A stretch of DNA of 64,000 nt. Origin: Fibrobacter sp. (GTDB lineage: Bacteria; Fibrobacterota; Fibrobacteria; Fibrobacterales; Fibrobacteraceae). A program made the position numbers and the translations under genes. The notes beneath the pieces were generated by a model, which saw nothing but the letters and a program-made list of their open reading frames with translations, was not told the origin of the DNA and ran no database searches. Positions within the stretch are counted from its first letter, which is position 1; each line of letters opens with the position of its first letter. This document shows, in pieces, positions 35,327-36,423 of this stretch. Where the stretch lies: the NCBI GenBank assembly GCA_017626945.1, contig JAGAHT010000024.1, positions 1,120 through 65,119 on the forward strand. Reading direction: 5' to 3'.

Positions 35327-36004
35327 CTATTTCAAACTTACGGCATCCCATACGCCCTCGGCATCAGTTCGAATATCAACTTTACCATCAGCGGCAAGGT
35401 TTTCAAGGACATTATTTAAAGCAACCATAGACTCATCATCATTTACGACGCCAAATTTGTCCATAAATGCATAGTATAAAAGCTCATATGTCGTCGCACC
35501 AATTTTATATTCAGATAAATGGTTCAATATCCAATCCGAAATTTCTGTATCGCCTGCACTCTGTTTATTCCATTCTAAGTCATATTTCCATTCTAAGTCA
35601 TGTGCTGCGGTCTTAGAGTCACGAAGCCGACCGATAAGTTTATCTTCAACCGCCAAACGAATTGACTCTGGCTCAACATGCATAAAGGAAACGAAAATAT
35701 CATTGTCTTTGTACACATTCATTACGTTTTCTAATTTGGAGCCAGTTTTATCAGAGCGATAAATCAAGTGCGCCCTAAGACGCGCTCTTAAATTTTTTGC
35801 TTCGCCGACATATTTGGCGACATTGCCAACCCAAATTGCATATATTCCACTTTGTTTTGGAACCTCGCTTGGAATAGTTTTTTCTGGATTTCCAATTATG
35901 TCCGATTCAATTTTTATACGAGAAGCAAGACTTCCAACTAAATTTTTTTCAGCTTCTGCAATCAACTTGTTCCAAGCAGCATCTTCCAACTGAATAGTGT
36001 TCAT
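35327..36004 (-). CDS. Free-standing GIY-YIG endonuclease (225 aa)
   Basis: SGIYAIWVGNVAKYVGEAKNLRARLRAH; GGAG RBS and ATG at 36004. Confidence 0.8.
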   Translation of the reverse strand: MNTIQLEDAAWNKLIAEAEKNLVGSLASRIKIESDIIGNPEKTIPSEVPKQSGIYAIWVGNVAKYVGEAKNLRARLRAHLIYRSDKTGSKLENVMNVYKDNDIFVSFMHVEPESIRLAVEDKLIGRLRDSKTAAHDLEWKYDLEWNKQSAGDTEISDWILNHLSEYKIGATTYELLYYAFMDKFGVVNDDESMVALNNVLENLAADGKVDIRTDAEGVWDAVSLK

Positions 36005-36025
36005 TTTTTTCTCCGCTGTTAATAG

Positions 36026-36055
36026 AAAAAAAGATGAACCATTCAGTTCATCTTT
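36026..36055 (-). terminator. Intrinsic terminator after the intron-containing tRNA
   Basis: AAAGATGAAC-TGAATG-GTTCATCTTT-TTTT on the minus strand. Confidence 0.65.
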
Positions 36056-36057
36056 AG

Positions 36058-36368
36058 TGGAGCCTCCCGGACTTGAACCGGGAACCAACGGGTTTACGTT
36101 CGTGATGCTTTCGCACCTCCGTGGACTATGTCTTCGCCATGCCCTTGCGGGTTTAGGCGTGGGAGGCTTGCGCGGTCATTAAGCAGGCTCTACTGCTCCG
36201 CTAGTCTCTACACCTTCCAGGAGTGTACCCCTGGCTCGGCTCGGCGTTGCCGTGCAGCGTTTCCGCTGGTTAGGTTTCACCGATTTCTTCCCATTCGCAT
36301 CCAACTCTTTCAAGCTGGTGCCACAATTTTTATGAGTCCGACGCTCTAACCGATTGAGCTAAGGCTCC
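36058..36368 (-). tRNA. tRNA with CAT anticodon (probably Ile2, lysidine type), split by a group I intron; exons 36368-36332 and 36094-36058
   Basis: Joined exons GGAGCCT TA GCTC AATCGGTTA GAGC G TCGGA CTCAT|AA CCCGT TGGTT CCCGG TTCAAGT CCGGG AGGCTCC A form a cloverleaf; anticodon stem has two mismatches; CCA not encoded. Confidence 0.85.
36095..36331 (-). ncRNA. Group I (IC3, Azoarcus tRNA-Ile type) intron, 237 nt, no internal ORF
   Basis: Core motifs AATCGGTGAAACCTAA, GGCAACGCCGAGCC, GAAGGTGTAGAGACTAG, GAAGACATAGTCC, GGTGC-GAAA-GCATC (P9); P1 = CUCAU|AA-AAA-UU-GUGG with U.G at the 5' splice site. Confidence 0.9.
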
Positions 36369-36423
36369 GAGCGCAAAGATAGTAAAAATCGGATTTTTTC
36401 AAGTGAATAAATCATATTTTGTG

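Follow-up and report, generated by a model that had tools for sequence, protein, structure and literature searches.

A tRNA(CAU) gene in a Fibrobacter prophage, interrupted by a group I intron that ends in adenosine and followed by a variable slot for GIY-YIG nucleases

Group I introns have long been known in tRNA(CAU) genes at the position directly after the anticodon, among them the introns of the Azoarcus type. Here we describe an intron of this kind in a prophage: a stretch of 64,000 nucleotides (nt) from Fibrobacter sp. (GenBank assembly GCA_017626945.1, contig JAGAHT010000024.1, positions 1,120 to 65,119 of the forward strand; the whole stretch is called the window below) carries on its minus strand a phage tRNA(CAU) gene split by a group I intron and, behind it, the gene of a GIY-YIG nuclease. 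Several described systems resemble parts of this arrangement. In phage T4, the free-standing GIY-YIG gene segB lies among tRNA genes and is preferentially inherited together with the tRNA region (PMC2988022). In collaborative homing, a free-standing nuclease and an intron are partners, as for F-CphI with the psbA intron of cyanophage S-PM2, and for T4 mobE with the nrdB intron (PMC3984707, PMC2988022). A cyanobacterial tRNA-fMet intron encodes its own endonuclease, I-SspI (cited in PMC3984707). Furthermore, a 2014 review assigned every group I intron then known from phages to a protein-coding gene, although phages carry many tRNA genes (PMC3984707). Our literature searches found no report of a phage tRNA(CAU) intron element, and no record in a collection of 50,697 phage genomes matches the element described here; an earlier note on this DNA, made from the sequence alone, had likewise known of no described case in a Fibrobacter prophage.

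The intron shares with the Azoarcus-type tRNA(CAU) introns the type of host gene, the point of insertion between tRNA positions 36 and 37, a P1 helix in which CAU pairs with GUG through a U-G wobble, and the lack of an open reading frame (ORF). The J6/7-P7-J8/7 core is identical (GAAGGUGUAGAGACUAG ... CAUAGUCC), and the layout of P9.0 and P9 is alike. It differs in its length, 237 nt here against about 205 nt there, since an additional hairpin, also present in introns of Verrucomicrobia, separates P7 from the 3' strand of P3; in its carrier, which is a prophage in Fibrobacterota; and in its last base, which is A rather than G. An exact-match search with a presumed form of the Azoarcus intron sequence found nothing.

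The terminal guanosine is among the most constant features of group I introns. The only natural precedent known to us for a group I intron with a terminal A is Cbu.L1917, in the 23S rRNA of Coxiella burnetii, which in the account of Raghavan, Hicks and Minnick in J Bacteriol of 2009 reportedly ends in A, splices slowly and was called a unique 'natural splice mutant'. Cbu.L1917 is thus like the Fibrobacter intron in being reportedly a natural group I intron that ends in A and not in G, and unlike it in its subgroup, in its rRNA host gene and in its phylum; it was described as unique, whereas the A described here has become fixed in a chromosomal lineage and in a phage-borne lineage that have diverged from each other.

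The nuclease side of the locus also has partial counterparts. Like T4 segB, the gene is free-standing, of GIY-YIG type and lodged beside a phage tRNA; unlike SegB, its product is without detectable family-level similarity to that protein and has another DNA-binding domain (a predicted winged helix), and in T4 no intron takes part. The collaborative-homing cases are alike in that intron-less alleles exist in the population, and differ in having protein-coding host genes and other nuclease families; cleavage of the insertion site is experimental there and putative here. With the I-SspI intron the locus shares a group I intron in the anticodon loop of tRNA(CAU) and a linked endonuclease that targets, or here may target, the anticodon region, whereas I-SspI is encoded within its intron, belongs to another family and resides in a cyanobacterial chromosome.

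The core of the locus, in order along the minus strand, reads as follows.

36385 to 36369, minus strand: 17-nt upstream stretch (TTTACTATCTTTGCGCTC region), common to the phage tRNA gene and the chromosomal intron-less gene
36368 to 36332, minus strand: 5' exon of tRNA(CAU), 37 nt, GGAGCCUUAGCUCAAUCGGUUAGAGCGUCGGACUCAU, ending ...CUCAU at anticodon position 36
36331 to 36095, minus strand: group I (IC3) intron, exactly 237 nt, no ORF on the sense strand
36094 to 36058, minus strand: 3' exon of tRNA(CAU), 37 nt, AACCCGUUGGUUCCCGGUUCAAGUCCGGGAGGCUCCA, CCA not encoded
36055 to 36030 (or to 36022), minus strand: intrinsic terminator 3' of the tRNA 3' exon, with an 11-bp stem, a 4-nt loop and a T run
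36004 to 35327, minus strand: free-standing GIY-YIG nuclease gene, 225 aa, likely start ATG at 36004, stop at 35327

When the 5' half of the tRNA was tried against every downstream point, ARAGORN assembled a 75-nt tRNA with anticodon cat from the exon join 36332|36094. The joined exons satisfy the cloverleaf of an elongator tRNA with anticodon CAU (Met or Ile2), and for the same exon sequence, as it stands in an uninterrupted gene (L289), the Rfam tRNA model returns 66.7 bits, its gathering score being 29. These results, from a check of the joined exons that the earlier note had proposed, bear out its claim of a minus-strand tRNA(CAT) interrupted directly after the anticodon. In the unspliced window the interrupted gene went undetected by ARAGORN, the sole call of which was a tRNA-Gly. 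The order of parts that the note had described downstream, a terminator and then a co-oriented GIY-YIG gene, was also found, with the 11-bp stem and T run for the former and a match to Pfam PF01541 (25.3 bits, cut-off 22.6) for the latter.

Intron-less alleles with exons identical to those of the phage tRNA(CAU) lie on Fibrobacter chromosomes (L289, L296), where the junction reads CUCAU|AACCCG. This uninterrupted junction is held by 13 species-representative genomes, 12 of which are Fibrobacter, and an intron-less tRNA gene of the same type is also present on one viral contig. In a blastn comparison of L289 and L296 with the window, positions 36385-36330 were matched at 96%. The 17 nt shared upstream of the gene are likely to be promoter-proximal sequence that was acquired along with it, and suggest that the phage tRNA(CAU) was originally captured from a Fibrobacter chromosome.

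The interruption itself folds into the helices of a group I intron, as listed here.

36335 to 36330 with 36326 to 36321, minus strand: P1
36320 to 36298, minus strand: P2
36293 to 36287 with 36166 to 36160, minus strand: P3
36283 to 36278 with 36246 to 36241, minus strand: P4
36274 to 36250, minus strand: P5-P5a
36240 to 36212, minus strand: P6-P6a
36206 to 36202 with 36128 to 36124, minus strand: P7 (GACUA/UAGUC), with G 36206 and C 36124 as the guanosine-binding pair
36200 to 36173, minus strand: extra hairpin after P7
36159 to 36135, minus strand: P8
36121 to 36120 with 36098 to 36097, minus strand: P9.0
36117 to 36104, minus strand: P9

The stretch that forms P9 is conserved in the intron family, which is why a reading of the 3' region as a tRNA with a long variable arm was dropped.

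Searches with covariance models, which the earlier note had proposed as a check, gave a divided answer. The Rfam model Intron_gpI (RF00028) found no match, either over the whole window at its gathering score or over a 600-nt region at E<=10, an outcome that by the terms of the note would have spoken against the intron. Rfam release 15 at gathering score also misses seven bona fide IC3 tRNA introns (L004, L016, L001, L068, L035, L038 and L021), which include Rhodocyclales copies of the Azoarcus type, and the split tRNAs are missed as well; because these relatives are undisputed, the Rfam negative is uninformative on the identity of the intron. The lone Rfam signal on the intron is LOOT RNA (25 bits, E=0.012, 36087-36159, minus strand), which lies over P8/P9 and is probably due to a shared GNRA tetraloop and receptor-like motifs (CCUAAA...CAUGG). 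An independent covariance model, R1, was built from 20 proteobacterial tRNA(CAU) introns only and spans P3 to the 3' exon; it gave a single match in 64 kb, a minus-strand hit over 36088-36295 that scores 105.7 bits (E=6e-35). At least 119 species-representative genomes contain the core strings GGCAACGCCGAGCC and GAAGGTGTAGAGACTAG, separated by a short gap and always within a tRNA anticodon loop; examples of the tRNA types are Leu(UAA) in Burkholderia and CAU in many Betaproteobacteria, Verrucomicrobia and Fibrobacter. In one metagenome-assembled genome (MAG) labelled Klebsiella pneumoniae (L092), the intron is identical to that of a Steroidobacteraceae MAG (L076), which is probably an error of binning or labelling.

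The secondary structure was assessed by drawing helices P1-P9 by hand on the window sequence and scoring them on 17 introns with the longer architecture (alignment A2). Across the 72 drawn pairs, 92.1% of cells are paired, compared with 83.5% in shuffles and 27-43% in slid controls; 24 of the pairs have changed on both sides in a compensated manner, and the observed covariation was reached by none of 500 shuffles. The covariation backs the P3/P7 pseudoknot and the core helices P3-P9. RNAalifold, applied to 37 introns, independently recovers most of the helices, as does a single-sequence fold of the intron (z = -3.25). In P1, the sequence UCAU|AA pairs with the internal guide UUGUGG, with a U-G wobble at the splice site; the corresponding column pair U7:G15 is U-G in 15 of the 17 sequences and U-A in the other two, and RNAalifold keeps the pair in 37/37. 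P7 and the joining strands J6/7 and J8/7 are invariant in all 37 introns, and the first P7 pair is presumably the guanosine-binding pair G130-C177 of the Azoarcus numbering. The hairpin of about 30 nt between P7 and the 3' strand of P3 is common to introns of Verrucomicrobia and Opitutia and to a relative from the rumen (L145/L149). Judged by its sequence and its pattern of covariation, the 237-nt insert is a genuine group I intron of subgroup IC3 with an Azoarcus-type P1, core and P9, much as the earlier note had read it from the letters. Its terminal base, A36095, leads us to file it as a variant of IC3 and not as a standard member.

This terminal base sets the Fibrobacter introns apart. It had escaped the earlier note, as had the tRNA(CAU) attachment site of the prophage, the exact intron-less alleles and the divergent slot alleles of sister phages. 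An alignment of 37 distinct tRNA(CAU) introns (A1) is free of gaps over its final 50 columns, and its last intron column (column 286, position 36095) is A throughout the 11 Fibrobacter-type variants and G throughout the 26 relatives from other lineages; the Fibrobacter type lacks the terminal (omega) G that group I introns have. The nearest upstream G, at 36097, lies two bases before the intron end and is the 3' partner in the two-pair helix P9.0. Among the 37 introns, the P9.0 pair 260:284 is GC in 19, CG in 11, AU in four, UA in two and GU in one, and is broken in none (RNAalifold). G36097 was considered as the true 3' splice site and rejected, on account of the 9-nt anticodon loop and broken P10 that it would entail and of its covarying role in P9.0. 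The order of P9.0, one base and then the terminal base is constant in all sequences, and the first two bases of the 3' exon (AA) pair with UU beside the internal guide to form P10. The constant spacing, P10, the need for a 7-nt anticodon loop and the intron-less allele CUCAU|AACCCG place the splice site after A36095. Since the intron and the 3' exon both begin with AA, the boundaries can be slid by one or two bases; the final intron base is A in each reading. The closest relative with a terminal G from the rumen (L145/L149) ends ...GAACAUG|AACCCG. The closest G-terminal relative, of 262 nt, sits on L150 (1294-5147 and 4169-4395) in a phage-like array of tRNA-Pro/Asn/Thr/Arg and tmRNA genes, and is a second, unrelated split tRNA(CAU) that looks phage-borne.

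Whether such an intron splices has been weighed from its conservation and from RNA. The A-terminal clade consists of two lineages that are about 85% identical, a form of 232 nt and the phage form of 237 nt; the former is chromosomal, since its neighbours are genes for aconitase, NifU and SufB (L068; also L009). Within the clade, P2 reads CCAGCU/AGUUGG in one variant and CCAGUC/GGCUGG in another, P5a is swapped as a whole hairpin in L065, and P6a and P9 co-vary too. The exons of the chromosomal (L009/L068) and phage lineages differ by a compensated swap of the T stem, CCGGG/CCCGG versus CCCGG/CCGGG, which points to selection for the tRNA as such. Neither of the MAGs that carry the chromosomal intron (L009/L068) is among the genomes with an uninterrupted allele; the split gene may be their sole copy, although MAGs are incomplete.

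The sequence is present in many rumen metatranscriptomes. In one of them, X30, mean depth is 430 over the intron unitig and up to 5.6 over upstream DNA; k-mers from the 5' exon peak at 37.7, a value to which host genes contribute. Intron RNA is thereby about 10-fold or more over the junction k-mers, a pattern that fits a build-up of excised intron. Joined forms in RNA contigs all came from host intron-less tRNA(CAU) genes, which show two mismatches in the 5' half, and a 237-nt 'skip' in two runs and loose ends in other runs were traced to the same host genes. As a separate observation, an RNA contig of depth 24 in X30 joins the last base of the 5' exon, 36332, to 36219 (minus strand) in P6a, with 112 nt skipped; this junction has no preceding G and might stem from a deletion variant, from template switching or from aberrant splicing.

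Three points tell against a working ribozyme. The guanosine-binding G-C pair in P7 is the same as in relatives with omega G, and the invariance of P7 and its flanks implies a pocket still suited to G, in which an omega A is expected to hinder exon ligation. The X30 values are contig depths and not read counts, which makes them a crude guide to expression. Finally, the spliced product of the phage tRNA gene was not found in eight RNA runs. The intron could be a splicing-dead relic, with omega A as a knock-out mutation and the phage tRNA as a pseudogene; omega G is otherwise invariant (26 of 26 relatives), no spliced product of the phage gene was seen in the RNA runs, and two pairs of the anticodon stem, 27-43 (U-U) and 31-39 (A-C), are non-standard. 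However, about 10 Fibrobacter species have U27-U43 and A31-C39 in their intron-less chromosomal gene too, and the two pairs are therefore not a sign of decay. The compensated changes in P2, P5a, P6a and P9, the conserved exons with their compensated T stem, the two species that apparently have only an interrupted copy, and the abundance of intron RNA all speak against a relic, which we consider very improbable.

In the proposed mechanism, transcription would start at a promoter of the gene's own and stop at the terminator (36055-36030). GTP would attack after U36, held in P1 by the U-G wobble, and the freed 5' exon would then attack after A36095, a site positioned by P9.0 (C-G, G-C) and a 2-bp P10 (AA with UU). 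The product would have a normal 7-nt anticodon loop, CUCAUAA. The second step would probably be slow, because omega A occupies a pocket built for G, yet sufficient for a working tRNA.

The split gene is embedded in phage genes. The plus strand carries terminase, portal, Mu-F-like, capsid, tail and baseplate genes, and the landmarks around the locus are these.

7051 to 9869, plus strand: DUF2213 head-maturation gene, cement protein and major capsid protein
29988 to 31397, plus strand: large terminase
31412 to 32653, plus strand: portal
32657 to 35323, plus strand: Mu-F-like minor head gene (Pfam PF04233), the conserved right flank of a variable slot
36464 to 38420, minus strand: block of small phage ORFs of 93, 136, 57, 125 (DUF3846), 77 and 134 aa, in the stretch from the tRNA to the end of the prophage
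38786 to 38842, plus strand: right prophage junction (attR), consisting of the 3' two-thirds of a host tRNA(CAU) gene (..AGAGCAGCGGACTCATAACCCGCGGGTTCCGGGTTCAAGTCCCGGAGGTCCCA) and then its terminator

Contigs with the same GIY-YIG protein correspond over the whole span that begins with the terminase and takes in the tRNA and six small ORFs, and then continue into different host genes. Beyond the prophage, arginine decarboxylase and saccharopine dehydrogenase genes follow in L120 and in the window, and a sulfatase gene follows in L121. The alignment of L120 and L121 breaks inside the truncated tRNA(CAU): the sequence is common up to about CTCATAACCCGCGGGTTC, and the T arm and acceptor end are host-specific. 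In L291 and L293 that phage end continues into a tRNA(CAU) gene of a second type; the crossover lies 5' of tRNA position 26. Since one phage end is joined to differing tRNA(CAU) genes, the phage, on the evidence of these junctions, is one that integrates into host tRNA(CAU) genes. A similar tRNA(CAU) junction, formed by another element, was seen in L194.

By its structural genes and its host-variable attachment junction the element is an integrated prophage, that of an E217/Pa193-like tailed phage; its left end lies beyond the window. A Mu-like transposable phage, suggested by the Mu-F domain and the varied host flanks, was dropped once the tRNA-fragment junction had been found. The host is Fibrobacter: L057 (Fibrobacterales) matches window positions 36026-43607, host genes included, at 94-97%, and L065, L117 and L291 are Fibrobacter MAGs. 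The Fibrobacter prophage setting that the earlier note had proposed is confirmed by the structural genes, the attR in tRNA(CAU) and these MAG matches.

Since tRNA genes are frequent neighbours of prophages and this prophage end is marked by a tRNA(CAU) fragment, the split tRNA might be a host gene that marks the integration site and not a phage gene. The intron-bearing tRNA is, however, a separate and complete gene, 2.4 kb inside the right junction and in the opposite orientation, and it moves with the phage genes into at least three host contexts (L120, L121, L291) and onto viral contigs. These findings refute the reading as a host gene at the integration site.

For the protein encoded by the nuclease gene behind the tRNA, a HMMER scan of 1.8 billion representatives gave 100 relatives, 14 of them below 1e-10; a search for relatives in the species-representative genomes found none, and PHROG gave no match to the protein. 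Residues Y55, Y65, R75, H79, E120 and N146, the catalytic set of the GIY-YIG superfamily, are invariant in 16 aligned relatives. An AlphaFold (AF2) model with a pLDDT of 87 predicts a GIY-YIG core at residues 52-129 and a C-terminal winged helix at 150-224, in the order helix-strand-helix-helix-strand-strand. In Foldseek comparisons the core resembles T4 EndoII, the UvrC N-domain and R.Eco29kI, and the tail resembles DNA-binding domains of Fur and of the MarR type.

Sister phages fill the space from the tRNA to the Mu-F-like gene with at least six divergent GIY-YIG alleles or other cargo; the flanks of this slot are 98-100% identical on the tRNA side and 91-98% on the Mu-F side. The contents of the slot are as follows.

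Window allele, or its relatives at 72-74% identity
A 37%-identical allele: L159/L141, L151, L291
P0004 in L156, and a further variant in L146
P0012 after a second, 144-aa GIY-like gene (L281/L282); P0103 in L284
Nuclease-free: a 486-aa secreted-looking protein (L065), or other sequence (L057)

In L281, the two GIY-YIG family genes stand in tandem at 141-575 and 608-1240 and encode 144 aa and 210 aa. Replacement of alleles between near-identical flanks, the most telling trait of this gene, is the pattern of presence and absence by which Seg- and Mob-like homing endonucleases are recognized, and T4 segB is the nearest parallel. All family members with a readable upstream flank in this phage lineage sit after the intron-bearing tRNA; P0006 and P0013 are on short contigs, with no tRNA in the little flank present. 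The pairing of tRNA intron and GIY-YIG gene that the earlier note had proposed to look for in other genomes was seen in sister phages, and the intron often occurs free of a nuclease. None of 119 other intron loci has a member of the nuclease family nearby, nor do the chromosomal Fibrobacter copies or the tRNA array of L150.

The explanation that we find best for the whole, and hold with moderate confidence, is a self-splicing omega-A intron in a phage tRNA, accompanied by a selfish nuclease of homing type. The free-standing nuclease would cut related genomes that lack it near the locus, and would be copied in by repair. Its site may be the anticodon region of the uninterrupted tRNA(CAU), in which case the intron would shield the phage copy, as in collaborative homing. 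Cutting of intron-less tRNA genes by the nuclease is plausible, and so is the module of intron and trans-acting endonuclease that the earlier note had proposed; the module is an analogy, favoured by the retained catalytic residues, the predicted winged helix, the slot alleles behind the same tRNA and the existence of intron-less alleles. On the nuclease side, the evidence to be set against this explanation is that the protein is not a member of the I-TevI/Seg profile TIGR01453 (19.8 bits, cut-off 56), that its fold is nearer to T4 EndoII, UvrC and R.Eco29kI than to I-TevI, that the intron occurs without the nuclease in chromosomes (L009, L068), sister phages (L065, L057) and the 119 other bacterial loci, and that the intron is already present in every sister phage seen, with or without the nuclease, so that no phage allele lacking the intron is documented as a target.

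About as likely as the module is homing that is independent of the intron. The nuclease would then be a SegB-like endonuclease with a target unrelated to the intron, in or near the slot between tRNA and Mu-F, and the intron would be a mere neighbour inherited with the tRNA. Such a reading accommodates the variable slot between flanks of 91-99% identity, the sister phages that all have the intron regardless of the nuclease, and the two family members in tandem in L281; T4 segB, too, lies between tRNA genes and targets a tRNA intergenic region (PMC2988022). It leaves unexplained, though on a small sampling, why the family is found only behind an intron-bearing tRNA. In an intron-less allele, moreover, the insertion site would be about 95 nt from the nuclease gene, and position hardly separates the two models. 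We regard intron-independent homing as possible, with a weight well short of even.

The likeness of the core to T4 EndoII, the UvrC N-domain and R.Eco29kI, which are the top structural matches, raises a minor rival, in which the protein has no part in homing and serves to degrade host or competitor DNA, or in defence or counter-defence like T4 EndoII, from a fast-evolving accessory slot. It is without a family-level match to intron endonucleases, and some slots hold unrelated cargo such as the 486-aa protein of L065. The predicted winged helix, in contrast, suggests sequence-specific binding, and the replacement of alleles between near-identical flanks is a signature of homing; a function outside homing seems to us decidedly unlikely.

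A more elaborate form of the favoured explanation, with a self-splicing intron and a homing-type nuclease, would make the intron a shield and omega A a part of a tuned, working ribozyme, which we consider unlikely. The conserved anticodon-loop sequence CGGACUCAU|AACCCG (15 nt) is both the insertion site of the intron and the core of the host integration site, and is possibly the target of the nuclease. More speculatively, the intron may stop the phage tRNA copy from serving as a secondary attachment site. If the intron is a shield, the phage copy would be safe from the integrase of the phage as well as from its nuclease, and the intron-less tRNA(CAU) genes of hosts and rivals would be exposed.

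Other features of the window lie apart from this locus. A Tgt-like gene at 25918-26658 (plus strand) resembles queuine tRNA-ribosyltransferase (PHROG 887, E=8e-40); phage proteins of this kind are linked to 7-deazaguanine modification of DNA. A region of low GC content at 1805-6910 (minus strand) encodes an SNF2-helicase/PLD-nuclease protein (1142 aa) and a PLD NgoFVII-like protein (412 aa); these genes accompany the phage structural genes in all contigs seen and may be a restriction-like or defence module. At 43998-44585 (plus strand), a tRNA-Gly(CCC) gene precedes two direct repeats that copy its 3' end and the adjoining downstream sequence (44055-44109/44275-44329 and 44221-44284/44522-44585), which resemble the scars of other integrations.

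What is new in this locus is the Fibrobacterota lineage, the prophage as carrier, the fixed terminal A with an unchanged G pocket, and the hypervariable nuclease slot alongside. A phage-borne tRNA split by a group I intron fills the gap left by phage introns confined, by the account of the 2014 review, to protein-coding genes. Split tRNA genes of this class are missed by the standard Rfam model and by default tRNA finders, and are probably under-annotated in genomes and viromes. The slot lends itself, as a clean natural system, to the question of how cooperation between such nucleases and ORF-less introns arises. The clade with its fixed terminal A, kept G pocket and kept structure is a natural experiment on the second step of splicing and, if the proposed splicing is true, would present a natural group I ribozyme able to ligate exons although its last base is adenosine and its guanosine pocket is unaltered. 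To our knowledge, it would be preceded by only one such lineage, and by none from a tRNA or from a phage.

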